Shown piece by piece: positions 2,982-47,027 of a stretch of 50,904 bases of DNA. The stretch lies in NCBI GenBank assembly GCA_964642045.1, contig CAZXLZ010000001.1, positions 1-50,904 of the forward strand. The letters run 5' to 3'. A program made the position numbers and the translations under genes. Source of the DNA: an uncultured Clostridiaceae bacterium (GTDB taxonomy: Bacteria; Bacillota; Clostridia; TANB77; CAG-465). The notes below the pieces were generated by a model. That model did no database searches. It worked only from the letters and a program-made list of their open reading frames with translations, and was not told where the DNA came from. Each line of letters begins with the position of its first letter. Position 1 is the stretch's first letter.

Positions 2982-3338
2982 CTATGTAGTAACTTCATTT
3001 ACAGTTTTTGTTATGAAGCTAACAATTGTTCCAGCAGCGAAAACTAAAATAGCACCTACTACTAATGTAATAGTTTGTTTCTTTATATCAGCTTTATCAT
3101 TTGCTGATGCAAACATATATCTAACTCCTGCAAAAACTATAGCAGCAACAGCTAGTATTTGTAATATTAAAGAAACTGAACCCCATATTTTCTTTGCTGC
3201 ATTATCAATGCTTTCTACACTACCATTTGACAAATCACTAGCATTACTCCACGTAATTCCAAAAACATTAGAAACTATAAGTAGTCCTACTAACACTACT
3301 GGCATTATTTTGCAAAGTATTTTTGTAATTTTTTTCAT
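2982..3338 (-). CDS. TrbC/VirB2-like pilin
   Basis: 118 aa: signal peptide, TM, GVRYMFASANDKADIKKQ loop, second TM. This matches the size and topology of TrbC/VirB2 family proteins. Confidence 0.5.
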   Translation of the reverse strand: MKKITKILCKIMPVVLVGLLIVSNVFGITWSNASDLSNGSVESIDNAAKKIWGSVSLILQILAVAAIVFAGVRYMFASANDKADIKKQTITLVVGAILVFAAGTIVSFITKTVNEVTT

Positions 3339-3535
3339 AAAAAATTCCTCCTTAAATTTACAATTTTATTATAACATTTATTTTTTCATGTTCAATACTT
3401 TTATTTAATTTTTGTCATTTTATTATATTTATTTGCAGATTTAATACACTTTATGAAATATTTTTGTAACAAATTTAATTTTGTATATTATTTTTTATTG
3501 ATTTTGTATATTACATTGGTTATAATACTTTTGAG

Positions 3536-4040
3536 GTGATATATATTAAAAAGTTTTTTATTTCTTTTATTTTTATAATTTTTATCTTAATTTTATTTTT
3601 TTCTGAAAATAATTTAGATTCTAATTTCCACTTTCCCACTGATTATTATAACTATATATCTTCATATTTTGGAAGTAGACAGTTATTTGGAAGCTCTAAT
3701 TTTCATACAGGAGTAGATTTTTTAGCTCCACAAGGCACTGAAGTTAGGGCATGTAATTCTGGGTATGTTAAGTATGCAAGTTTCTTAAATGGATATGGCA
3801 ACTGTATCATTTTACTTCATGATAATGGTTATAGGTCACTATACGCACATCTTAGTGAAAACTTTATTGTAAATGTTCGGAGACTTTGTTAGTACTGATC
3901 AGATTATATCCTATGTTGGCCCATACATGCTTTCAAATGGAGTTATAAATGGAAATACAACAGGACCTCATTTACATTTTGAACTGTATAATGAAAAAGG
4001 AGACCTTATCGATCCCCTTTCTATTAATTATTCACAGTAG
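3536..4040 (+). CDS. M23 family metallopeptidase, interrupted by a one-base frameshift at CGG 3878-3880
   Basis: The N-terminal part has HTGVDFLAPQGTEVRACNSGYV...LYAHLSENFIVNV. The +1 frame continues GDFVSTDQIISYVGP...TGPHLHFELY to TAG at 4038-4040. The join restores the M23 consensus V-G-D-x-V...GPHLHFE. Confidence 0.75.
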
Positions 4041-27779: not shown

Positions 27780-30140
27780 TTAACAAAATGCAAGCTCACG
27801 CTCAAGGAATATTAACTTTTCTGATTCAAGATCACAGTCAATATTATACTCTTTCCCTTGGATAACTTTGCCCTCTGTTATTGCAGCTATAATTTGCTTT
27901 GAAACAATATTTTTTACCAATTGACTTACATGTCTTGCACTACCATCTTTTAAATGGTTTAATATGCACTCAGTTACATCATCTGATACAGTAAATTTAA
28001 AGCCTTTTAATTTGAATGAATCCTGAAGCTTAGCTACTTCAATGCTTGCGATTTCTTTAAGCACTTTAATATCAAGATTATTAAGAACTATTACCTCATC
28101 AAATCTATCAAGTATTTCCTGCTTTATTCCCTTCTTTATATCATTCAAAACATCACTATTATTATCATGCTCTCCAAAACCAAGACTTTTTGAATTATTA
28201 GTATATGATGCACTATTTGCTGTACATATTATTATGGTCTGATTGAAACTAACCTCTGTCATAGAAGCATCAGTTAATTTTCCTTCATCAAGAATCTGAA
28301 GAAGAAGATTAAGTACATCAGGATGAGCCTTGTCAATTTCATCAAGAAGAACTATCGAATAGGGATTTCTCCTTACTTTTTCAGTAAGTCCAACTACTTC
28401 ATCAAAGCCGACATATCCAGGAGGTGCACCTATAATCTTGCTCACACTATGCTTCTCCATATACTCCGTCATATCAAGTTTAATAAGCCTATTTTCATCA
28501 CCAAGTAAATGTTTTGCAAGAAGTTTTGCAAGATATGTTTTACCAACACCAGTTTTGCCTGATAAAAAGAAGCTAGCAAGAGGCCTTTTCTCATTTGTTA
28601 TTCCGAAATATGACATTGATATAGTATCAAAAATCTTTGTTACAGCCTCATCTTGACCAAAAATTTCGGATTTAATGTTTTCTCTAGCAGACGCTGTTAA
28701 ATTCACATTTTCTGATGTAATATCAGAAATATTGACATTCTTAAACGTAGATACAACACTTTTTACTATATCATTCGTCAAAACTTGCTCTCCTTTTATT
28801 ACACACAAGGCAGATGCTTCATCAATTACATCAATTGCTTTATCAGGAAAATTTCTTTCAGGTATATATTTATCTGAAAGATCTATAGCAAGCTTTATTG
28901 TACCATCCGGAATAGAAATACCATGATAATCTTCATAGCTTTCCTTTATTCCAGTTATGACCTCAAAAGACTCCTCTTTATCCATTTTACCTACTATGAC
29001 AGGATTAAATCTTCTTTCAAGTGCAGCGTCTTTTTCAATTTTTTTCCTATACTCGTCAAGAGTAGTTGCACCTATAATCTGAATTTTTCCACGAGAAAGA
29101 GGAGGCTTTAAAATATTTCCTGCATCAATTGCACCTTCTGAAGCTCCAGCTCCTACAATGTTGTGAAGTTCATCTATAAAGAGTATTATGTTCCCTGCTT
29201 TTTGTACTTCATTTAATACTTCGTTTATTCGTTCCTCAAAATCTCCACGATATCTTGAACCAGCAATCATACTATTTAAGTTCAAACTGTATATAACCTT
29301 ATTCATTAAATTTTTGGGTACATTACCAGTTGCAATCTTCATAGCTAGACCTTCAACAATAGCAGTTTTACCTACACCCGCCTCGCCTAAAAGTACCGGA
29401 CTGTTTTTGGTTTTCTTGCTAAGGATATTAAGCATTCTATCAATTTCATGTTCTCTTCCAATAAGTTTCGAAAGTTCATTATTAACTGCACGTTTTGAAA
29501 AATTTACTCCAAATTTATCCAAATATTTATAACTTATATCGACAATTTTCTCATAACCATAATTACATGTTAAACATTCTCGAGACGAATTTGGAAAAAT
29601 AGTATATATATTACTAGGGATTTTCTCATATATATATTCATTCATGAAGTAGTGAGCGTCATATAAAAACTCTAACGGTTTTATTTTTTTCAACATTTTC
29701 TTAATAAACGAGCTATTAATATCAAGCTTAACGTGCACATCTTCAAATAATTTTATAATATCCACGTAATAATGTGGAAAATGATTAATATGGTTTAAAA
29801 AATGAGTGAAGAATCTTATTGTGGAAGCTATCTTAGCATTATCATATTCATAAGACTTTATAATTGCCTGTAATCTGTCATCATATGGGAGTATAAAAAG
29901 CTTTGATATTTTTTCCTCTTCCTCATTGTTCGGAAAATCAAATAAATTTCTCTTAAAAATCATCCCTTTTGTTATTCCAAGTTCAAGTAAAAAGTACCTT
30001 GGAACACATTCAGTAGTAAAAAATCCATACAAAATATCCATTGGTGATACATAATAAGCACCATTTTTCTTAGCAAAATCCATTGCCCTTCGAAAAACCT
30101 CTCTTAAGTTGGTTGTGCATAAATTAAAATTAAGTGCCAT
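27780..30140 (-). CDS. Divergent ClpA/ClpC-family AAA+ unfoldase paralog
   Basis: Two AAA modules ([33 protein letters not shown]), GAPPGYVGF, and an LGF tripeptide in D2. The roughly 230-aa N-terminal region has only one recognisable Clp-N repeat, and the middle coiled coil is nearly absent. The start at MALNF follows AAGGAGAA. Confidence 0.8.
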   Translation of the reverse strand: [786 protein letters not shown]

Positions 30141-30291
30141 AACTTTCTCCTTCAATAATTATTTTTTGATTTCCTAAATTCTTGCGCATATATTATACCA
30201 CTGCACATATTGTTATGTCAACATTATATGTAAATTTAAATAATAAAAATATGCATTTCAAGTACATTGTTACTTAAAACGCACATTTAAA

Positions 30292-32725
30292 TTAAATTTT
30301 TGTTATTTTTTCTACTTTAATTTTATTACTTTCAGTTTCATCAGTTATATAAACCTTTTTATTTTCTTTAATTTTTCCATTTATAATTTCACTTGCAATT
30401 AAATCTTCTACATTAGTTTGAATAGCTCTTTTTAATGGTCTTGCGCCATATTCTTTGTCAAAACCAACATTTGCTAAAAATTCTACTACCTTATCATCAT
30501 AAACAAGGTCAATCTTTTTATTTTTTAGTCTTTGTGAAAATTCATTTAGAAGTTTTCTTGTTATTTCTTGTATATTTTCTTTAGTTAGTTTTCTAAATAC
30601 TATTATCTCATCTAGTCTATTTATAAACTCAGGTTTAAAATTCTTTTTAGCTTCTTGTATAACTTCTTTTTTTACTTCTTCATAATCTCTATTTTCATCT
30701 AATTTATTAGAAAATCCCATTTTACTTTTTTCTGTTATATTTTTAGCACCAATATTAGATGTTAAAATTATAATTGTATTTTTAAAATCTACTTTTCTTC
30801 CAGTAGAATCTGTAAGCACACCCTCATCTAAAATTTGTAAAAGTATATTATATATGTCACTATGGGCTTTTTCTATTTCATCAAAAAGCACTACGCTATA
30901 CGGATTTTGCCTTACCTTTTCTGTTAAAAGTCCACCATTTGAATTATCATATCCAACATATCCGTGGAGGCGCCCCTATAAGCTTAGACACACTATGTGC
31001 TTCCATATACTCTGACATATCTAATTTTATAAGCGAATTATCATTTTCAAAAATATTATCTGCTAGAGCCTTTACAAGCTCAGTTTTTCCTGTTCCTGTA
31101 GGTCCAAGAAGTAAAAATGTACCTATTGGTCTTTTCTCATCTTTTATACCTACTCTTGCTCTAATAATTGACCTGCACAAACTCTTTACTGCCATTTCTT
31201 GACCAATTACTCTCTTTATTATATTTTGCTCTAAATCCTTTAACTTTTCTGTTTCTGTTTTATTAAGCTTAGATATAGGAATTTTGGTAATGGTGGAAAC
31301 TGCATCATATATGTCATCAACTTTAAGACTAATTACCTTGTTTTCCTTATATTTAAGATCATTTAATTTATTTTCAGTTTTCTCATACTTTTCCTTATAT
31401 TTAGCTGCTTTTTCAAAATTTTCTTCAATTATTGCTTCTTCTTTATCTAGGTCAATCTTTTTTAATTTATCTTCTAAAGTTTTTATACTATTTGGCGCAC
31501 TAAGTGAAGTTACTCTCTTTTTAGAACAAGCTTCCTCAAGTACATCTATTGCTTTATCTGGTAAAAATTTATCGTTTATATATCTTTTACTAAGATTTAC
31601 GCACGCTTCTATGCAGTCATCTGGAAGTAGTATATTGTGATAAATTTCATAACTTGTTTTTAAAGATTTAAGTATGTCTATTGCCATTTCTTTAGTTGGT
31701 TCTTCTATATTTATAACCTGAAATCTTCTATCTAAAGCTGCATCTTTTTCTATGTGTTTCCTATATTCTGATATGGTAGTTGCACCTATTATCTGAACAG
31801 AGCCTTTAGAAAGCATTGGCTTTAAAATATTAGCTGCATCCATTGCGCCTTCTGCAGAACCAGCACCTACAATATTATGTATCTCATCTATGAAAAGTAT
31901 AATGTTTCCATCCTTTTCGCACTCAGATATGCACTTTTTTAATCTTTCCTCGAAATCCCCTCTATACTTAGCACCTGCTACCATTTGTGATATATCAAGT
32001 AAATATACTTTTTTATTTGCAAGCTCAGGTGGTACTTTTTTATCTACAATTCTCTTTACTAAGCCTTCAACAAGTGCTGTTTTACCAACTCCTGGCTCAC
32101 CTATGACTAAGGGATTATTTTTAGTCTTTCTAACAATTATTTGAACCATTCTATCTATTTCATTTTCTCTTGATACAACATTACTTAATTTGCCAGAGAT
32201 AGCCTCATCATTCATATTTATTCCATAAGTATTTAAAGTTGGATATACCTCTTTATAATCAGTTTCCTCTACAAATGTTCCAACAGGAGAATCTTCAGAT
32301 ATTACTTTCATTAAATCTACAAATATCTTCTGAGGATCTACCTGTGCATCTATAAGTATTCGTATTGCTATACTATCTACTTCTCTCATAAGGGCTAAAA
32401 GTAAATGTTCTGTTCCTATATAGTTATGCTTCATTTTAATAGATTCTTTTTTACTTTGTTTAATTACTTTGCTAGCTTTAGGTGTATAATCAATATCTTT
32501 TATATGAACAGCTGTATCTTGAGCTCCATCTATTTTTAATATCTCATTTTTTATATATTCCTTAGTTATATTTTGCTTGCCAAGTATTTTAGCTGCAAGC
32601 CCTGCGCCCTCTGCTACTAAACCATAAAGTAGATGCTCTGTACCTATAAACTGATAGTTATTTTCCTTTGCAAATTTCTTTGCTATATTTAAAGCTTCTT
32701 CAGCTCTACTTGTAAATTCATACAT
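30292..32725 (-). CDS. clpC: ATP-dependent Clp protease ATP-binding subunit ClpC, interrupted by a one-base frameshift at CGG (complement of 30962-30964)
   Basis: Two Clp-N repeats, GEPGVGKTA, an M-domain coiled coil and GPTGTGKTE. The break falls inside the conserved [12 protein letters not shown] motif. The +1 frame continues [34 protein letters not shown]. Confidence 0.85.
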
Positions 32726-37239: not shown

Positions 37240-38694
37240 TTACATTATTCCATATTTTCTCTTACAAGATTTTAAGTTTTTATTCATTATCTTTTCCCAT
37301 ATCTTATATTCTTGCATATCCTGATTAACAATTTCAATATGGTATGTATCTTCTGAAAGCTTTATTATTCTAACTATATCATTCTCTTCATAAGCAATAT
37401 TTTCCAAATTTTTGCAAAGTATAGATATAAATGTTTGACCTTTTCTTTGGAACATCTTAGATGAGTTTTCTATATACTTCTTATTTTCCTTACAATCTAT
37501 AATCTCAATATGTATATCTCTTTCTTTTGTTATAACTCCTGCCTCATCTACTACTTTTGCTTTATCTGGGAATTCAAAGAATGCTGGTATTAAATCTCTT
37601 ATATAGTTAGGTATTTTTATAATATCTAAATCCTTTTTATTTTGCTGTTTAGCTGGAAGCTGCATAATGAAGTTTGTTACATTATTTAAATCTACTTTCT
37701 TAACTTTAAGAAGCTCTACTTCATCATTAAAAGATTTTTCTCCACTGTCATCCATCTTTTCTTTATTTGCTTCTTTCTTTTTCTCCTTAAGTTTAACTGT
37801 AGATTTTGTAAATAACATATCATTTAAGTCTATTTCTTCATCTAAGTTAATATCATCATCTATCTCTTCTTCATCTATAACTTCATCTTCAAAGCCTTGA
37901 TCTACCTTATTTTCTACTTTTTCTTCTTTTTTGGATTTTTTCTTAGTTTTTTCTTCTTTAGCATCTGTCTTTATTACAGCTTCTGATACCATTGATACAT
38001 CAATATCAAAATCTGAAAAACTATCATCTAATTTTACTTCTGGCATTCCAAAATCAGAAGCTACTATATCTTCATCTGATTTTACATCCTTACTATCTTT
38101 TTTAGCTTCATCTTTTTTGCCCAAAAGTTCAGCTATTGACTTAACACTATGTTCATACTGTTTATTTGAAAAGATAATTTTGCTATCTATAAGATCTGAA
38201 ATATCAGATTTTTTAAGAAGAGTAAATTCTAAATCTTTTAAGCTAGATAACTGTTTTATTTTCTCTTTATATTCCCTTTTCTCTAAATCTGATTTTAAAT
38301 CATATTCAAACTTAGATATCATAACTAAGTCTTCTGTCATAGAATTTTCAGATATTTTTCCAGATGAGAAATATATAACAGCTCTCTTATCATTTTCAAA
38401 AACAATAGATGTTCCTTCAAATTCTTTTATTTCGTTATTGTTATAATAATATACTTCCTTTGAATAACTTAAAATACTTTCAAGTAAACTTTTGGTAGTA
38501 TTCTTTTTGTCTACTCCCATATACATTACAAGTTTAACAGATGTATCTATTATATTTTCTTCAATAATATTAAATCCTGATTCTTTTACAGTTCCCGCAT
38601 ATATATACATTTTTTTAGGATTAAGACTCATCTCATTTTCTATACATTTCTTTAAATTTAAATCTTCATTTTGCATGATAACATCTAGCTTCAT
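37240..38694 (-). CDS. Hypothetical protein with a possible inactive PLD-like N-domain, K/E/D-rich linker and B3/EcoRII-N-like C-domain
   Basis: 484-aa clean ORF. The domain guesses rest on pattern similarity only (see finding). Confidence 0.6.
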   Translation of the reverse strand: MKLDVIMQNEDLNLKKCIENEMSLNPKKMYIYAGTVKESGFNIIEENIIDTSVKLVMYMGVDKKNTTKSLLESILSYSKEVYYYNNNEIKEFEGTSIVFENDKRAVIYFSSGKISENSMTEDLVMISKFEYDLKSDLEKREYKEKIKQLSSLKDLEFTLLKKSDISDLIDSKIIFSNKQYEHSVKSIAELLGKKDEAKKDSKDVKSDEDIVASDFGMPEVKLDDSFSDFDIDVSMVSEAVIKTDAKEEKTKKKSKKEEKVENKVDQGFEDEVIDEEEIDDDINLDEEIDLNDMLFTKSTVKLKEKKKEANKEKMDDSGEKSFNDEVELLKVKKVDLNNVTNFIMQLPAKQQNKKDLDIIKIPNYIRDLIPAFFEFPDKAKVVDEAGVITKERDIHIEIIDCKENKKYIENSSKMFQRKGQTFISILCKNLENIAYEENDIVRIIKLSEDTYHIEIVNQDMQEYKIWEKIMNKNLKSCKRKYGIM

Positions 38695-38843
38695 AAAAAT
38701 ACCACCTCATATATCTAAAACTTTATCATATAAATAGATTTTTTTCAAGCATTTTTAATTAAATTTCTTTAACTCGCTTTCCAAAATTCTATTGATTTAG
38801 ATATATCTTTATGTTATATTATAAATTGGAGGTTTTTTTAACA

Positions 38844-39575
38844 ATGATTAAAGAAAATTATAGATTTATAGCTAAAAGGGGGCTTCATTCTAGAAACGAA
38901 AACATTCCTGAAAATTCTATTGGTGCTTTTGAAAATGCTATAAAAAATGGTTTTGCCGTGCATTTTGAAGTGCAGCTTACTTTAGATAATGAAGCTATAG
39001 TATTTGGTGATGAAAATTTTACTAGACTATGTAGTTTGGATTTATCTCCTCTGCACTGTCCAGTAGAAGAAGCTTGTAGGTTAATGCTTAAAGGAACTGA
39101 GTATAAGATTCCTACTTTAAAAAAGCTATTGGAAGCTATAAATGGAAAAGTTCCAATACTTATAGAAATAATAAATAATGATAATGAAGTTGGAATATTA
39201 GAGAAAAGAGTTGCACATTGTCTTGAAGACTATCATGGAGTAGTTATGATTGCATCTAAAGATCCTATGACAGTATTATGGTTTAAAAATAATGCTCCTG
39301 ATATAACTAGAGGTCAAATTGTAGATGAAGATGAAATAAATAAAAATTCAAACTTTTTAAAGAAAACAATTTTAAAAACTCCAATTCTTAATTTTGAAAG
39401 TAATCCTCAGTTTATAATGTATGATATTAACAAATTAAAAGAATCATATGCTGATGACTTACATAAAAAAGGTCTTGAACTTATTGGATATACTGCTGTG
39501 TCAGAAGAAACTCTAAAAAAAGCAAGAGATCTTTGTGATGGAGTAATTTTTGAAGAAGTAACTATAGAGGATTAA
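38844..39575 (+). CDS. Glycerophosphodiester phosphodiesterase family protein
   Basis: IAKRGLHSRNENIPENSIGAFENAI...FEVQLT matches the GDPD HR...ENT...E.D pattern. The ATG at 38844 follows GGAGG. Confidence 0.8.
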   Translation: MIKENYRFIAKRGLHSRNENIPENSIGAFENAIKNGFAVHFEVQLTLDNEAIVFGDENFTRLCSLDLSPLHCPVEEACRLMLKGTEYKIPTLKKLLEAINGKVPILIEIINNDNEVGILEKRVAHCLEDYHGVVMIASKDPMTVLWFKNNAPDITRGQIVDEDEINKNSNFLKKTILKTPILNFESNPQFIMYDINKLKESYADDLHKKGLELIGYTAVSEETLKKARDLCDGVIFEEVTIED

Positions 39576-39665
39576 AATAACATAAATAATAACCCATATA
39601 GGTTAATTATACTTTCTAAAATTTAGCTTAGTACAATATACCTATATGGGTTACTTTTAACAAAT

Positions 39666-40334
39666 TTACCTACGTATCATCAATCTTTCTTGTGTTTCTT
39701 TAATCTTCTTTTTCAATTCAAGTAAAAACTCATAAAACTCTTTGTCTGAATCGCTCCAAGAAATAAATGTTTTATTGTTTTTGTCTTTATTGTAAAAATC
39801 AAAATGCATTTCAACAGGCATTCCTACATGAATCTTTTCTTTATCTTTGTCTAAAGAAGATGAACTTACAGCCTCTTTTTCACATTTTATGCTATATTTT
39901 GCGGATATAGCATATGACCATCTAGCAAAATTGCTCTTAAATGCAATTGAAAGAGCATAACTAGGTATATTTATAAAAAATACCGGAAGCTCATAACCTT
40001 TACATACATGGCCGCCACATATCTTGACCCTTGGAAGTGCCCTAAAAAGATCATCCTCAAAACAAACAGCATCGTAATAGAAAATATCAATAATGCTCTG
40101 TGCGAACATAAACTGCTCAAACTTCTTTTGTTCATATTTTGGGCCATCAAACTTCACATTTGAAGCTAACAAATAACTAATGACATCTGCGGCATAGGAT
40201 TTAGAAAAATGGTTCTGAAATTTTTCAAGCACTTCTGGATCTGTTTCATAGCTTGGAATAAACTTTGTATAACAAAAATCGCGGGTTCCCCTAAGTGCAT
40301 AAATAACGCTGCAATTTGCTTTAAGTTTTTCCAT
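39666..40334 (-). CDS. Paralog A of an unknown four-member family
   Basis: 222 aa, GGAGGA RBS. It shares KANCSV, SYETD, QFMFAQSIIDIFYYD, LPVF and FYEFLL blocks with 41526-42185. Confidence 0.7.
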   Translation of the reverse strand: MEKLKANCSVIYALRGTRDFCYTKFIPSYETDPEVLEKFQNHFSKSYAADVISYLLASNVKFDGPKYEQKKFEQFMFAQSIIDIFYYDAVCFEDDLFRALPRVKICGGHVCKGYELPVFFINIPSYALSIAFKSNFARWSYAISAKYSIKCEKEAVSSSSLDKDKEKIHVGMPVEMHFDFYNKDKNNKTFISWSDSDKEFYEFLLELKKKIKETQERLMIRR

Positions 40335-40370
40335 TATGTAATTCCTCCAAAAAAATTTCTGTTATTTGTT

Positions 40371-41018
40371 TTAAGACCTTTTTTTCTCTTCCTCATTAAT
40401 TTGATCCCTTATCTTAAGAAGTATATCATAGAACTCACTATCAGATGAAATTCTTGTGATAAATCTCGCATTCCATTTATCATATGAATCGCACTGATCC
40501 TTTACCCATTTTGGAAAGCCTTCTACGAGTCTTTCTCTATCATTAAGCTCATCTTCAGAGCTAAATACTCCGAGATTATCAATGGGTATTTCAGAACATA
40601 TTGCTACTACCCATTCATTGAAATCATGCTTAAAAGTAAGAACAAGTCCATATTCTGGCATATCTACACAGAAAACAGGAAGAATATAACCTTTACTGTT
40701 ATGGGAGCTGCATATTTCAACTCTCGGTATATCATCATACAAGTAATTTTCCTGCCAGTAGAATATATCTACCACCATTTGTGCAAATACACACCGGCCA
40801 AGCTTCATATTATCACAATATATTGCTTTACGTGTTGCCTCGAACATTCCTATCGTAAGATAGCTCATCAAATCGGCAGTACCATTGATGTTACACTGAT
40901 TAAAGAGCTCCATAACGCTTTCGTCCGTTTCATAGCTTTCTACATAATCCCTCTTGTCAAATTCAGGGAAGCTCTTAATGACACTAAGAACGCTGCAATT
41001 TGCTTTAAGTTTTTCCAT
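40371..41018 (-). CDS. Paralog B of the unknown family
   Basis: 215 aa, GGAGGA RBS. It shares long identical runs with 42224-42892. Confidence 0.7.
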   Translation of the reverse strand: MEKLKANCSVLSVIKSFPEFDKRDYVESYETDESVMELFNQCNINGTADLMSYLTIGMFEATRKAIYCDNMKLGRCVFAQMVVDIFYWQENYLYDDIPRVEICSSHNSKGYILPVFCVDMPEYGLVLTFKHDFNEWVVAICSEIPIDNLGVFSSEDELNDRERLVEGFPKWVKDQCDSYDKWNARFITRISSDSEFYDILLKIRDQINEEEKKRS

Positions 41019-41164
41019 TTGTAAATTCCTCCATGTTTAAAAAGATTTTTAGTTAGAAATCATCTTCTAAAGTTTACGTAAGTATTATATCATAATTATT
41101 GTAAAAAGTAAAGTAAGATATAAAAATACCTCTACAAATTCAAATATTTGTAGGGGTATTTTAA

Positions 41165-41375
41165 TTATTTTTTATTTAGATAAGTCTCTAGAATATACAT
41201 TGCAGCAAATCTATCTGCATAAGTATTCTTTTTGACTAATACTCAGCTCTTCCATCATTTTATAGCTACTAACATTGGTTAATCTTTCATCTGCTCTTAT
41301 ACTTTCCAAACTATTTTTTCAAGCTCTGAATTAAGGTATCTATTTTTTTGAAATTCTTCTATCCATTGTTGCTTC
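41165..41375 (-). pseudogene. Degraded copy of the ruvX 3' end
   Basis: Near-identical to 43037-43262 at the nucleotide level, but with indels and no open frame. Confidence 0.75.
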
Positions 41376-41400
41376 AGAAAATGCAATAAAAAATATTTTT

Positions 41401-41463
41401 TCTAAAAAAGCAAGATATCTTTACTACGGAGTAATTTTTGGGGAAATAACTATAGAGGATTAA
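41401..41463 (+). pseudogene. Copy of the last ~60 nt of the GDPD gene
   Basis: TCTAAAAAAGCAAGATATCTTTACTACGGAGTAATTTTTGGGGAAATAACTATAGAGGATTAA compares with 39512-39575, TCTAAAAAAAGCAAGAGATCTTTGTGATGGAGTAATTTTTGAAGAAGTAACTATAGAGGATTAA. Confidence 0.75.
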
Positions 41464-41525
41464 ATGATTATATAAGAAATATCCCACACAAGCTAATACA
41501 CTTGTATGGGACATTTTTTAGCAAA

Positions 41526-42185
41526 TTAAAAAAGTAAAAGTACTTTCCTAAGCTGAGTTTTTACTCTAAGTAAAAACTCATAAAAATCTTTTTCCGTCTC
41601 ACTATAAGAAATAAACTTTTTATTGTTTTTCTCCTCATCATAAATGGAAAAATGCATACTTTCAGGCATTCCTATTTGTATCACCTTCCTTTTATAATAA
41701 TATAACCATTCAGAATTTTCTTTGCTCAGCTTATCTAAGTAAAGATCATTAATGCTATTTTCTGAATCAATAGCAAAAAACCAGTGATAAAAATCATTCT
41801 TAAACACAATTTTGAGTTTATACTCAGGCATATCTATACAAAACACTGGAAGTACATTATGTTCAGCTGAATAAGTGCCGCATATTTCAAGTGTTGGAAG
41901 TTCTATGCACAAGTCATAATAGAAAATATCAATAATGCTACGTGCAAACATGAACTGTTTAAGTTTGCTTTGAATCATATCTGTACCATCAAACTTCAAA
42001 TCTTCTGAAACTATTAAATAACTAATTGCATCTGAGCCAACAGTTGTAGAAAGTTTGGTTTCCATTTTTTCCAAGACTTCACGATCAGTTTCGTAGCTTT
42101 CGATAAAATCATCAAAACCAAATCTAAAATCAGGAATATTCTTAAGCACGTTAAGAACGCTACAATTTGCTTTAAACTTTTTCAT
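41526..42185 (-). CDS. Paralog C of the unknown family (A-type)
   Basis: The start at MKKFKANCSV follows GGAGGA; the longer ORF start lies in the RBS. Confidence 0.7.
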   Translation of the reverse strand: MKKFKANCSVLNVLKNIPDFRFGFDDFIESYETDREVLEKMETKLSTTVGSDAISYLIVSEDLKFDGTDMIQSKLKQFMFARSIIDIFYYDLCIELPTLEICGTYSAEHNVLPVFCIDMPEYKLKIVFKNDFYHWFFAIDSENSINDLYLDKLSKENSEWLYYYKRKVIQIGMPESMHFSIYDEEKNNKKFISYSETEKDFYEFLLRVKTQLRKVLLLF

Positions 42186-42223
42186 ATGTAATTCCTCCAC
42201 AAAAAAGATTGCTGTTATTTGTT

Positions 42224-42892
42224 TTAAGACCTTTTTTTATTTTTATTAATCTGATCCCTTATCTTAAGAAGCATATCATAGAACTCCCTATCAGATGAAA
42301 TTATTGTGATAAATCTATCATTATCTATGATACTCTTATTACATTTATCGTATGAACTGTAATATATCTTCACCCCACTCGGAAATCCCTCTAAGAGTCC
42401 TTCTCTATCATTAAGCTCCTCTTCAGAGCTAAATACACCGAAATTATCAATGGGTATATCAGAACGTATTGCTACTACCCATTCATTGAAATCATTCTTG
42501 AAAGTAAGATTAAGTCCATATTCTGACATACCTACATAGAAAACAGGAAGGATATAGCCTTTACTGTTATGATAGCCGCATATTTCTACTCTCGGTATAT
42601 CATCATACGAATAATTTTTCTGCCAGTTGAATATGTCTACCACCATTTGTGCAAATACACACCGGCTAAGCTTCATCTTATCATAAGATGTAGCTTTAAG
42701 TGTTTCCTCGAACATTCCTATCGTAAGATGGCTCATCAAATCGGCAGTATCATTGATGTTACACTTACACTGATTAAAGAGCTCCATAACGCTTTCGTCC
42801 GTTTCATAGCTTTCTACGTAATCCCTCTTGTCAAATTCAGGGAAGTTCTTAATGACATTAAGAACGCTGCAATTGGCTTTAAGTTTTTCCAT
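42224..42892 (-). CDS. Paralog D of the unknown family (B-type)
   Basis: The start at MEKLKANCSV follows GGAGGA. Closely related to 40371-41018. Confidence 0.7.
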   Translation of the reverse strand: MEKLKANCSVLNVIKNFPEFDKRDYVESYETDESVMELFNQCKCNINDTADLMSHLTIGMFEETLKATSYDKMKLSRCVFAQMVVDIFNWQKNYSYDDIPRVEICGYHNSKGYILPVFYVGMSEYGLNLTFKNDFNEWVVAIRSDIPIDNFGVFSSEEELNDREGLLEGFPSGVKIYYSSYDKCNKSIIDNDRFITIISSDREFYDMLLKIRDQINKNKKRS

Positions 42893-43036
42893 GTGAAAAT
42901 CCTCCATGTTTAAAAAGATTTTTAGTTAGAAATCAATTTCTAAATTTTACGTAAGTATTGTATCATAATTATTATCAAATGTAAAGTAAGATATAAAAAT
43001 ACCTCTACAAAATAAGCATTTGCAGGGGTATTTTAA

Positions 43037-43447
43037 TTATTTTTTATTTAGATAAGTCTCTAAAATATACATTGCAGCAAATCTATCTGCATAAGTATTC
43101 TTTTCTTTTTGACTAATACTCAGCTCTTTCATCATTTTATAACTACTAACAGTAGTTAATCTTTCATCTACTTTAGTTACTTTATGAACTATTTTTTCAA
43201 GCTCTGGAATTAGTAAATCTATTTTCTTAGACTTTTCTGACAGACTTCCATCCATATTTTTAGGATAGCCAATCACAATCTCTTCAACATCATAATCTTT
43301 TGCTACCCTTTTTATACCTGAAATGAAATTCTTATCACTTCTATTTATAACTAAATTTTCTAGACCATTTGCAACTATTTTTAAAGGGTCACTAACAGCA
43401 AGACCTACCCTTACGTCGCCATAGTCTATAGCTAAAATTCTTCCCAT
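43037..43447 (-). CDS. ruvX: Holliday junction resolvase-like protein RuvX (YqgF)
   Basis: ILAIDYGDVRVGLAVSD N-terminus, 136 aa. Confidence 0.85.
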   Translation of the reverse strand: MGRILAIDYGDVRVGLAVSDPLKIVANGLENLVINRSDKNFISGIKRVAKDYDVEEIVIGYPKNMDGSLSEKSKKIDLLIPELEKIVHKVTKVDERLTTVSSYKMMKELSISQKEKNTYADRFAAMYILETYLNKK

Positions 43448-44825: not shown

Positions 44826-46580
44826 TTAATCTACTTCTTTTTCTAAAGTTTCTTCCGCTTTTTCTTCTGAAAAATACTTTTCATCAACTTTCTTTGAATT
44901 AAGTAATCTATCAAATAGACCTGGTCCCTTCTTTTCTTTTTTATGCTCTTTTTCTTGCTTTTTATCAAATGCATTACCAATAGGATATATAGCATTTATA
45001 AGTTTATTTAGAGCAGTTTTAAAATCATCAGTAAAACTTGAAAATACATTTGTATACTTAAATACCATCTCTACATATTTTCTATAATTATCTTCATGAA
45101 AAGGTATTACAAAATACGATATATTTCCGTTTGTAAATATTTCATCATAAGTCTTTAGATCATAACTAGTATATGTAGCAATTCCTTCTAATATATCTTT
45201 AACTGTAAGAGCACACTTCATATGTTTATTTATTATAATACGGATCTTACTCATTGGAAGACCTCTATTTTTAAGTTCTCTTAAGAAAACTGTAAGCTGA
45301 CTTACATTTAAAACATCCATATCCTGAACTACATATATTTCTTGACAAAGTCTAAAGTAGTCCATTGGTGTTGTAAAATCAGCATCTATAAGTATTACAG
45401 TATTACTTTCCATAACAGTTTCAATAAGTCTTCCAGCATTATATGATTTTCTATCTTCACCTGGCATAGAAGTATATATGCTTAATGCATCATAATTTAA
45501 TGGTTCATTCATACCTTTTGATGCATATTTCAAACTTTCTGCTGCTATATTTCTTTTACCTTCATTATCATATGTATATATAGTATATGAATCTCTTTTT
45601 CTAGTCAAATCTACAATAGCAGTCTTTATATTCTTCTTAGCAAGATGGGTTGCTACAGCATTTATACAAAAAGTTGTACCAGATTTTGGAGCTCCAACAA
45701 AACATATTACTTTTTTATAATCCTTTGGGACCTCATATACTGACTGATATACCTCTTTTTCCATTACTTCAGTTACAACAGGCGCTTGATGATTTACTTC
45801 TTTTAATACGATTTTTTCTATAATCTCCGGAGCTTTTTTTATCTCCATTACGTTATCAGAATTTTGAAGAACCTCTTCTTTCTTTTCTACTTTTACTTCT
45901 GGTTCTGCACCAGCTATAGAAATTATTTGTTTATATTTTTCATTATTGAAAGATAAATACTGCTTTACATCAGCAGGTAAAAATCGAATTACAATTTTTA
46001 ATTGTTCATCCGTATATTGTGATGCAACTCTATCAAATATTTCATTGTATTTGTCTGCTACACCATTTAAATTTCTGAAATATGAAACTATCCTTTGAAG
46101 TTCTATTTCAGAAACTTGCACACTTCTATATACACTTTGTCCAACTTTATCTTCATAATATTTCTTTACATCTTTTTTTAGTAATAATGTATTAATTATA
46201 GAGCAAACTTTTCCTTTTGTCCTATCTTGTCCAGTAAGTACTGAATAAATTCCAAGATTAAATAACTTAGATAAAAATTCATCTCCTAGTTTCCTTTTAT
46301 CTGAAGCTATAAATATAATTTTCTTTGAATCAAAAACATCGGTTAAATTATCTATATTTGTAAATAAATAATCATCAATCTGTGCTGAATTAGTTGTAGG
46401 AAATTTTTCAAGTTCCTCTAAAACAACTACTCTATCATAATCTGCCATTTCTACTTCTTGCAGTAGTTGTTTAAAGTAATACACATTTTTATACTCAATC
46501 TTCTCTTTATATTTTTCTTCATAGAAAGTAACTATTCCCTTTACAGTATTATCATTGTTAATCCCAAATAAAACTTTCAT
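44826..46580 (-). CDS. ParA/MinD/CpaE-like P-loop protein with an N-terminal receiver-like domain
   Basis: 584 aa. The C-terminal part has ICFVGAPKSGTTFCINAV...VILIDADF, a ParA-like layout in which the P-loop lacks the canonical GK(S/T) lysine. The N-terminal ~120 aa have a flavodoxin/REC-like alternation. Confidence 0.45.
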   Translation of the reverse strand: MKVLFGINNDNTVKGIVTFYEEKYKEKIEYKNVYYFKQLLQEVEMADYDRVVVLEELEKFPTTNSAQIDDYLFTNIDNLTDVFDSKKIIFIASDKRKLGDEFLSKLFNLGIYSVLTGQDRTKGKVCSIINTLLLKKDVKKYYEDKVGQSVYRSVQVSEIELQRIVSYFRNLNGVADKYNEIFDRVASQYTDEQLKIVIRFLPADVKQYLSFNNEKYKQIISIAGAEPEVKVEKKEEVLQNSDNVMEIKKAPEIIEKIVLKEVNHQAPVVTEVMEKEVYQSVYEVPKDYKKVICFVGAPKSGTTFCINAVATHLAKKNIKTAIVDLTRKRDSYTIYTYDNEGKRNIAAESLKYASKGMNEPLNYDALSIYTSMPGEDRKSYNAGRLIETVMESNTVILIDADFTTPMDYFRLCQEIYVVQDMDVLNVSQLTVFLRELKNRGLPMSKIRIIINKHMKCALTVKDILEGIATYTSYDLKTYDEIFTNGNISYFVIPFHEDNYRKYVEMVFKYTNVFSSFTDDFKTALNKLINAIYPIGNAFDKKQEKEHKKEKKGPGLFDRLLNSKKVDEKYFSEEKAEETLEKEVD

Positions 46581-46601: not shown

Positions 46602-46925
46602 TTATAATGTTATGAATGCGTAAAAAAGTGGTAATGCTTGTATAATTGCCATAAATATTGCAACACCTACAATAAGCCTTTGACCTGTTATCTTATGCTC
46701 TAACATTTCTGAACCTATTACATAATACTCATACATAGCATAAATAAATATAATAGTCATAACTGGCCATGAATATCTCTGCATTATAACAAGCACTTTT
46801 AAAAATGAATCATAAACCTTATCATTTGTTGATACTTCTATATTTTCTCCAAATACAAAACCTGAAGTCACTGCAAGTAAAATAGCAACTATAATTGCTA
46901 TTATTGTAACCTTTTTATAAACCAT
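46602..46925 (-). CDS. Small membrane protein (107 aa, 3 TM)
   Basis: The start at MVYKKVTI follows GGGGGAG. Hydrophobic throughout. Confidence 0.55.
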   Translation of the reverse strand: MVYKKVTIIAIIVAILLAVTSGFVFGENIEVSTNDKVYDSFLKVLVIMQRYSWPVMTIIFIYAMYEYYVIGSEMLEHKITGQRLIVGVAIFMAIIQALPLFYAFITL

Positions 46926-47027
46926 TATTCTCCCCCTGCCTAATTTCAAAAATAATTTTACACATATATTTTACTATAAATAAATATTATAAGCAAGATT
47001 TTTCCTTTTTTTATTGATATTTTTTTA

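Follow-up and report, generated by a model that had tools for sequence, protein, structure and literature searches.

Four paralogous genes between GDPD and ruvX

The locus described here lies in a stretch of 50,904 nucleotides (nt) at the start of contig CAZXLZ010000001.1 (assembly GCA_964642045.1), from an uncultured Clostridiaceae bacterium of the GTDB lineage CAG-465; the entire 51-kb stretch is hereafter called the window, and all coordinates refer to window positions. Between the convergent core genes GDPD (encoding a glycerophosphodiester phosphodiesterase) and ruvX we found four paralogous genes, A, B, C, and D, all on the minus strand, with gaps of 36–38 nt between A and B and between C and D, and about 0.5 kb of relic DNA between the two pairs (Table 1). 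Their products are homologous end to end, with 56 invariant columns in the four-protein alignment, among which is every motif that the first-pass annotation had given for this homology. The starts of C and D were taken at the ATG following GGAGG, the open frames being 15 nt longer upstream (to a GTG at 42200 for C and to 42907 for D), and the protein lengths of 215, 222, 219, and 222 amino acids (aa) agree with protein-database gene calls.

Each unit of the array keeps a ruvX-type terminator hairpin, a promoter-like site with an extended -10 element, and a GGAGG before its first gene. The four hairpins fold far better than shuffled controls (z = -5.2 to -7.4); the promoter scan was uninformative alone, with 30 sites found versus 29.8 expected. 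The spacer from ruvX to the first gene is about 85% identical to the spacer at the same site in a sister lineage, whereas synonymous sites of the flanking genes are far more diverged between the two (synonymous divergence, dS, of about 0.8), which argues that the spacer is under constraint. The array appears to form two bicistronic operons, D–C and B–A. Rfam and tRNA scans of the window found nothing, and its 51 kb contain neither a prophage nor an integrase or any other phage gene.

Table 1. Features of the array and its flanking genes (ORF, open reading frame; HMM, hidden Markov model; AF2, AlphaFold2; pLDDT, predicted local distance difference test).
Feature	Position	Strand	Evidence
GDPD, intact, left flank of array	38811..39575	+	Pfam GDPD, E 2.7e-11; 81% aa identity to orthologue in sister lineage (L001)
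Highly divergent block, unit 1 (terminator and almost all of A)	39577..40315	-	Unit 2 counterpart 41465-42166
Long hairpin, bidirectional terminator common to convergent GDPD and A	39588..39655	.	RNA fold -30.6 kcal/mol, z -5.2
Paralog A, 222 aa, A/C/E subtype, second gene of B-A operon	39666..40334	-	ORF, alignment; family HMM E 2.6e-47; AF2 pLDDT 90.9
Paralog B, 215 aa, B/D subtype, first gene of B-A operon	40371..41018	-	ORF, alignment, family HMM
Promoter-like site for B-A, TTTACT-17-TATAAT with TG	41084..41112	-	10/12 consensus match; duplicate of D-C promoter
Duplicate of ruvX terminator hairpin	41123..41162	.	Terminator scan; fold -16 kcal/mol, z -6.9
ruvX 3' relic, about the last 70 codons, frameshifted, stops in all frames	41165..41366 (end approximate)	-	Alignment to ruvX 43037-~43255
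GDPD 5' fragment, codons 36-48, SIGAFENAIKNGF	41362..41400	+	32/39 identity to 38916-38954
GDPD 3' relic, last 20 codons and stop	41401..41463	+	86% identity to 39512-39576
Terminator hairpin after C	41473..41520	.	Fold -24.7 kcal/mol, z -7.4
Paralog C, 219 aa from ATG, A/C/E subtype, second gene of D-C operon	41526..42185	-	ORF, alignment, family HMM
Paralog D, 222 aa from ATG, B/D subtype, first gene of D-C operon	42224..42892	-	ORF, alignment, family HMM
Promoter-like site for D-C, TTTACA-17-TACAAT with TG	42957..42985	-	Promoter scan; kept in L001
ruvX terminator hairpin	42996..43034	.	Fold -15 kcal/mol, z -5.3; kept in L001
ruvX, intact, right flank of array	43037..43447	-	Pfam RuvX, E 1.1e-34

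Tandem duplication with relics of both neighbors

Local alignment of 39400–41420 with 41300–43400 matched positions 39512–41349 to 41401–43228 as a single colinear block of 1912 columns at 77.3% identity, and families of direct repeats are spaced 1848–1889 nt apart, start to start. This colinear match of the two units far exceeds chance. The first-pass annotation had proposed a tandem segmental duplication with relics of both flanking genes, and the self-alignment agrees, giving a colinear head-to-tail block in which a ruvX relic abuts GDPD fragments. Its joining of ruvX to GDPD sequence stands, with two corrections: the interval it took for the junction (about 41376–41400) lies within GDPD-derived sequence, the ruvX relic ending at about 41366, and the unit it gave as about 1.9 kb was originally about 2.4 kb.

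The short segment 41362–41400 matches GDPD 38916–38954 at 32 of 39 positions, a level reached by 4% of random 39-mers of the window, with the runner-up anywhere in the window at 27/39. The segment continues in one frame into the GDPD 3' relic, reading SIVASENAIKNIF up to the join and SKKARYLYYGVIFGEITIED followed by a stop codon after it. Since it is derived from GDPD and in frame with the 3' relic, there are two junctions and not one, namely the ruvX–GDPD duplication junction at about 41360–41367 and an internal-deletion junction at 41400/41401. The presence of this GDPD 5' fragment also means that the original duplicated unit was about 2.4 kb long, reaching from GDPD codon ~36 to ruvX codon ~65 (about 43255), and that the truncated GDPD copy subsequently lost about 0.56 kb internally. 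The ruvX–GDPD junction may carry 5–7 nt of microhomology, TC(C/T)AT.

The duplication is almost certainly a real event and not an assembly chimera, because the ruvX relic is frameshifted and decayed: minus-strand alignment to the last ~70 codons of ruvX shows several indels, including a 5-nt deletion. An assembler might have concatenated two strain variants of a two-gene locus, given that the source is possibly a metagenome-assembled genome (MAG) and that exact copies of the window RuvX and GDPD proteins were not found on record elsewhere. Such an artefact is nonetheless extremely unlikely, as the functional genes of a second strain would be intact, whereas the ruvX relic has frameshifts and stops in all frames and the GDPD relic is an internally deleted fragment; moreover, joining ruvX to GDPD would need a k-mer common to both.

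Unequal divergence and probable allele replacement

The two units have not diverged evenly, as judged by Nei–Gojobori estimates with bootstrap intervals of dS, nonsynonymous divergence (dN), and their ratio (omega). B and D are 81% identical at the aa and 90% at the nt level, with dS 0.16 (0.09–0.25), dN 0.097, and omega 0.59 (0.35–1.17). A and C are 51% identical in aa and 66% in nt, with dS 0.99 (0.69–1.48), dN 0.36, and omega 0.37, and between A/C-type and B/D-type proteins aa identity is about 40% and dS is saturated. Between units, identity is 86% for the GDPD 3' relic, 89% for the A–B versus C–D intergenic regions, 90% for the spacer, and 88.5% for the ruvX relic; since these four separate segments are 86–90% identical, equal to the synonymous divergence of B and D, all of them date one event. 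The earlier remark that A and C are far more diverged than B, D, and the relics is thus confirmed, with a dS of about 1.0 for A–C. The divergent block is sharp-edged, bounded by the GDPD stop codon (39577) and by about codon 6 of the gene (~40315), with identities in 60-nt windows of 0.43–0.73 inside and 0.85–0.95 outside. It includes the hairpin at 39588–39655, whose identity to the matching hairpin downstream of C is only about 50%.

Of the two causes that had been suggested for this pattern, cassette replacement is favored by the dS contrast and the sharp block edges, while diversifying selection is not, with both dN/dS ratios below 1. In-place divergence of A and C, driven by strong diversifying selection once the units had been duplicated, would fit their aa identity of 51%, against 81% for B and D, and is very unlikely: dS is about six times higher for A–C than for B–D (0.99 versus 0.16) with non-overlapping bootstrap intervals, A–C dN/dS is 0.37, and the non-coding terminator in the block is likewise only about 50% identical, which selection on the proteins in place does not explain. 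Synonymous sites of A and C are diverged as between species, which argues for allele replacement. There is good support for the view that one A/C-type gene, together with its terminator, was swapped after the duplication, presumably by homologous recombination, for an allele as diverged as that of another species. This is also the parsimonious reading relative to an old duplication in which later gene conversion homogenized everything but A and C (that is, B/D and the relics); the latter is less parsimonious because conversion would have had to act separately on the two sides of C and to take in the 39-nt and 64-nt GDPD fragments.

Copy number in related lineages and origin of the cassette

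Only one close relative of the four proteins was found among 1.84 billion cluster representatives (P0005, E 8e-53), on a 1.6-kb contig of a sister lineage (L001). This contig carries, in order, the ruvX 3' end, the same terminator–promoter–leader spacer, one gene (E, 213 aa), a hairpin, and the GDPD 3' end. The product of gene E is 40–44% identical to all four window proteins and has the A/C-type indel pattern; an origin of gene E as a B/A recombinant was rejected, as the A/C pattern runs throughout it. Flanking proteins of the window and L001 are 81–82% identical (dS 0.79–0.87, dN 0.10–0.11). Between A and E, dN is 0.48 compared with these flanking values of 0.10–0.11, indicating fast protein evolution. 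The segmental duplication, with a dS of 0.16, is younger than the split between the window and L001, with a dS of about 0.8.

The empty site was found in a third lineage (L134), located via the neighboring 484-aa protein described below. Here the upstream genes are conserved and ruvX and GDPD are convergent, with their stops 40 bp apart, one hairpin common to both, and 0 family genes between them. The GDPD of L134 is 62–64% identical to those of the window and L001, versus 81% between the latter two, which places L134 as the outgroup, and copies at the ruvX–GDPD site accordingly number 0 in L134, 1 in L001, and 4 in the window. In 14 further species with upstream synteny kept (RuvX 61%–77% identical), the 8 kb downstream of ruvX contain no GDPD and no family member. 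The gene order upstream of ruvX is kept across the clade and breaks right after ruvX (L004–L016, ~8400 onward), the ruvX 3' end being a synteny breakpoint as well as the insertion site. An exact-DNA scan of Joint Genome Institute (JGI) metagenomes for the conserved leader found none.

The G+C content at third codon positions (GC3) of the four paralogs is 0.26–0.36, versus 0.13–0.18 in GDPD, ruvX, ligA, and the genes for the 484-aa protein and a 584-aa protein, and B and D rank third and fourth in overall GC among the 44 window ORFs. The GC3 anomaly points to import from a less AT-rich source, and a foreign origin of the four genes is well supported.

An undescribed protein family

The curated library searches were empty for all four proteins, in line with the first-pass annotation, which had recognized no domain: neither A–D nor any of 50 aligned relatives matched Pfam, NCBIfam, PADLOC, PHROGs, or PDB sequences. 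The PADLOC-DB 2.0 defense models returned 0 families for the four proteins and 50 relatives, and PHROGs v4 none at E ≤ 0.001, its sole matches being to one member each at E 0.006–0.007. No match was obtained by tblastn of four different members against 50,697 deposited phage genome records, pattern scans for the family in GTDB genomes and JGI metagenomes found none, and cluster look-ups gave no name other than "hypothetical protein." An exhaustive HMMER search recovered 61 clusters at E ≤ 1e-3 among the 1.84 billion representatives; in a word-indexed homologue search, the four-protein profile returned the window proteins only and the 50-member profile nine unnamed proteins.

Across 83 non-identical members, the conserved positions comprise a W, Q-x-x-F-x-R-D, T-H-x-S-K-S-x-x-L-P-V-Y, R-x-N-F-x-x-W, E-G-F-P, and F-T...Y-x-L-Y-x-F. 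The window proteins retain part of the conserved polar set, B and D most and C least, the last having lost family-conserved H, K, S, and E residues. An earlier AF2 model built from 4 sequences scored low (pLDDT 66) and yielded meaningless Foldseek matches; the model with relatives in the alignment reached pLDDT 90.9 and a predicted TM-score (pTM) of 0.86. In it, the N-terminal half is helical and the C-terminal half runs through a four-strand meander, a helix, and a fifth strand to a long helix at the C terminus. Foldseek of the pLDDT-91 model found nothing at E < 1e-3 in PDB or BFVD, with best TM-scores below 0.4. These results tentatively suggest soluble, two-domain proteins of a family that has not been described. 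T4 Alc, a lead from a BFVD Foldseek match annotated "ALC protein," was rejected (TM-score 0.26–0.32; hhalign probability versus T4 Alc and a seven-member Alc profile, 0.05%–0.4%), as was a relationship to T4 Ndd.

Relatives in large phages and other bacteria

In IMG/VR, family members were found at 40 loci, on contigs of up to 673 kb (33 of them >80 kb) and always in single copy; the scan used a phage-type alignment, by which phage contexts are over-represented in the sample. Neighboring genes at phage loci encode topoisomerase II subunits, a C5 DNA methylase, helicases, QueD, an SbcC-like protein, a phage multisubunit RNA polymerase beta subunit, tail proteins, and a Metallophos phosphoesterase that may be read as Mre11-like. 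On one large phage contig (L089, 8146–12009), which also encodes the multisubunit RNA polymerase beta subunit, a 135-aa family ORF lies exactly between the genes for GyrB-like and GyrA/ParC-like topoisomerase II subunits.

Two further contexts are bacterial. In L128–L131, a bacterial or conjugative-element context, the family gene lies between the gene for a 485-aa HExxH protein and ogt, near tag and an Exo_endo_phos gene, and on L128 (1–10809) a TraG/type IV secretion system (T4SS) coupling protein is encoded 6 kb from the family member. A PDB sequence search with the 485-aa protein was empty, and its candidacy as a homologue of the window 484-aa protein was tested and dismissed, the two being unrelated. 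In L132–L133, the family gene follows infB–rbfA and the gene for a 490-aa protein. Right after the family member in L132, a bacterium of 19.7% GC, stand two tandem paralogs of another small unannotated family (3244–3684 and 3732–3989), a variable-looking mini-array; a PDB sequence search with the L132 146-aa protein was empty. The window proteins score about the same against phage members as against other bacterial members (32–48 bits), so that no donor can be named; the bacterial copies form a distinct long-branch subfamily.

The 484-aa protein (37240–38694, minus strand) is encoded near a family member in more than one lineage. An acidic low-complexity linker connects its two domains, and it carries no annotation anywhere, Pfam, NCBIfam, and PDB all being without a match; even so, uncultured Clostridia have full-length homologues of it in at least 167 clusters. 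Its gene is paired divergently with GDPD in the window and in L134, L135, and L136, and the 490-aa protein encoded directly upstream of the L132 family member is a full-length homologue (43% identity, E 3e-111). A family member is thus found within one gene of a 484-aa-type protein in two lineages with different flanks, an adjacency that could reflect functional linkage, shared ancestry with repeated loss, or chance.

Origin and possible role of the array

We propose that the locus is a strain-variable accessory cassette, which entered the site between ruvX and GDPD, two convergent core genes, and was then amplified there. The four genes descend from a pair of old paralogs about 40% identical, a B/D-type gene followed by an A/C-type gene, and the pair was copied by the ~2.4-kb tandem duplication spanning GDPD codon ~36 to ruvX codon ~65. 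In its aftermath, unit 1 had the intact GDPD and a truncated ruvX, and unit 2 a truncated GDPD and the intact ruvX; the truncated GDPD then lost about 0.56 kb while the ruvX relic decayed via frameshifts. After the duplication, one A/C-type gene with its terminator was probably exchanged for a foreign allele by homologous recombination. To this whole explanation, comprising an imported accessory cassette, its insertion, duplication, and allele swap, and most likely a dispensable role in conflict, we assign a probability of about 0.5.

Several points weigh against it. The junctions are known from the assembled sequence alone, and gene conversion offers the other, less economical history outlined above. 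Phage contexts are over-represented in the sample, and the two other bacterial contexts (L128 and L132) mean that the family may have resided in bacteria for a long time and been lost repeatedly. The omega of 0.59 for B–D fits relaxed constraint as well as adaptive change. With regard to function, the empty library and Foldseek searches count in the same direction, and the phage loci have no conserved partner gene, the commonest neighbor occurring in 9 of 43.

As far as sequence comparison can suggest, the proteins may act in the bacterium as dispensable, fast-turnover factors of genetic conflict, and a housekeeping role seems unlikely. One possibility is that the bacterial proteins bind or mimic the target of the phage homologue. 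A more specific version, in which a family common to very large phages and a few AT-rich gut Clostridia supplies the host with a rapidly swapped and amplified decoy or blocker of a phage takeover factor, perhaps working with the 484-aa protein, and would represent a novel type of conflict module, is speculative and in itself unlikely. The first-pass annotation had likened the array to sets of polymorphic-toxin immunity genes or other conflict-system components. The array might instead be a homogeneous polyimmunity locus, that is, orphan immunity proteins against interbacterial polymorphic toxins, amplified and swapped to track changing toxins. The layout fits (same-orientation tandem paralogs with 36–38 nt gaps in pairs and no intervening toxin gene), as do copy numbers of 0, 1, and 4 between related lineages, fast protein evolution, and allele replacement. 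We consider this interpretation quite improbable, however, because none of 50 members matched a Pfam Imm, SUKH, or SuFu family, and no toxin domain was found in ten window ORFs scanned (27.8–50.3 kb), which upholds the earlier observation that no toxin gene is adjacent, or among the called or annotated neighbors (a subset) in about 50 relative loci. Furthermore, the distant relatives examined are single-copy genes of large phages situated by replication and modification genes, which is not expected for immunity genes.

A role as an accessory factor of DNA metabolism, in which the protein would bind an enzyme of DNA repair or topology, modulate it, or inhibit its host counterpart, with the bacterial copies serving or countering that role, is suggested by DNA enzymes adjoining the family in independent contexts, both at phage loci (topoisomerase II, helicases, SbcC-like protein, methylases) and in L128 (tag, ogt, Exo_endo_phos). 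The window array also adjoins ruvX, with ligA 3 kb away, and the T-H-x-S-K-S, R-x-N-F-x-x-W, and E-G-F-P conserved in 83 members suggest a binding or active site. Nevertheless, the association is loose, with the best recurring neighbor in 9/43 loci, large phage genomes are rich in such genes anyway, the L132 member follows infB–rbfA, and the window proteins, C most of all, have lost several conserved polar residues, all of which leaves this role doubtful. We think it no less doubtful that the genes are functionless passengers, selfish or decaying imported DNA in which the duplication was a neutral accident heading for loss. Presence/absence variation, the elevated B–D omega (0.59, bootstrap upper bound 1.17), the residues lost from C, and the decaying relics of the flanking genes would all accord with passengers, whereas the four ORFs are intact beside a ruvX relic of the same age with several frameshifts, omega is below 1 for both pairs, and the promoter/leader spacer is better kept between lineages than synonymous sites.

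Other genes in the window

Elsewhere in the window, a ClpC-type ATPase gene (30292–32725, minus strand) is split into two ORFs by a frameshift, a stop codon, or a sequencing error. The 592-aa ORF contains Clp_N, AAA, AAA_lid_9, and the first 57 positions of AAA_2, and the 199-aa ORF contains AAA_2 positions 80–166 and ClpB_D2-small; an intact Clp ATPase adjoins at 27780–30155. Two proteins of 584 aa (44826–46580) and 115 aa (46602–46949) on the minus strand have no Pfam match. Their genes are in strict synteny upstream of GGDEF–IreB–RuvX in 13 of 14 related MAG species (L003–L005 and L007–L016; L006 is too short) and in L134.

Significance and comparison with known systems

The locus is a clean, datable case of growth of a bacterial accessory locus, through insertion at a convergent terminator, gene duplication, a segmental duplication leaving decaying relics of both neighbors, internal deletion, and allele replacement. 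While these evolutionary mechanics are ordinary, the protein family is undescribed: none of the curated libraries searched contains it, although its structure is predicted with confidence, and in the contexts examined it occurs in gut Clostridia as well as in large phages that have not been cultivated. Should the conflict reading hold, the family would provide a new entry to phage–host interactions in a bacterial group without cultured representatives; if it is wrong, this is an ordinary strain-variable array of orphan genes.

Tandem segmental duplications in bacteria arise by illegitimate or microhomology-mediated recombination, and are usually unstable and nearly identical between copies. 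The window array resembles them in its head-to-tail units, in a single novel junction linking the distal end (ruvX codon ~65) to the proximal end (GDPD codon ~36), in the presence of each flanking gene once intact and once truncated, and in the possible 5–7 nt microhomology. Unlike them, it has persisted to about 10%–14% divergence and has gained an internal deletion and, apparently, an allele replacement.

The host-transcription inhibitor T4 Alc is like the short phage members of the family in size (~160–170 aa) and in being phage-encoded, and is not related to them. The likeness to phage accessory genes of the early-region or "moron" type is broader, and includes small, soluble, unannotated proteins, a patchy spread across phages and bacteria, their own promoter and terminator, and a GC3 about twice that of core genes. 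The window nevertheless differs from that model in holding no phage gene, and the bacterial copies in forming a distinct long-branch subfamily.

Homogeneous polyimmunity loci consist of tandem same-orientation paralogs of one family with short gaps and no intervening toxin gene, and vary in number and content between related strains (Zhang et al. 2012, PMC3482391); the orphan immunity genes of gut bacteria are a related comparison system (PMC12247911). The window array shares with both the same-orientation tandem paralogs at short distances, the absence of a toxin gene inside, the variable copy number and content, the fast evolution of the proteins, and, in all likelihood, the exchange of alleles. 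It differs from polyimmunity loci in that its family lies outside the described immunity families, and in that it consists of two copies of a two-gene unit produced by one segmental duplication rather than an accretion of many cassettes.

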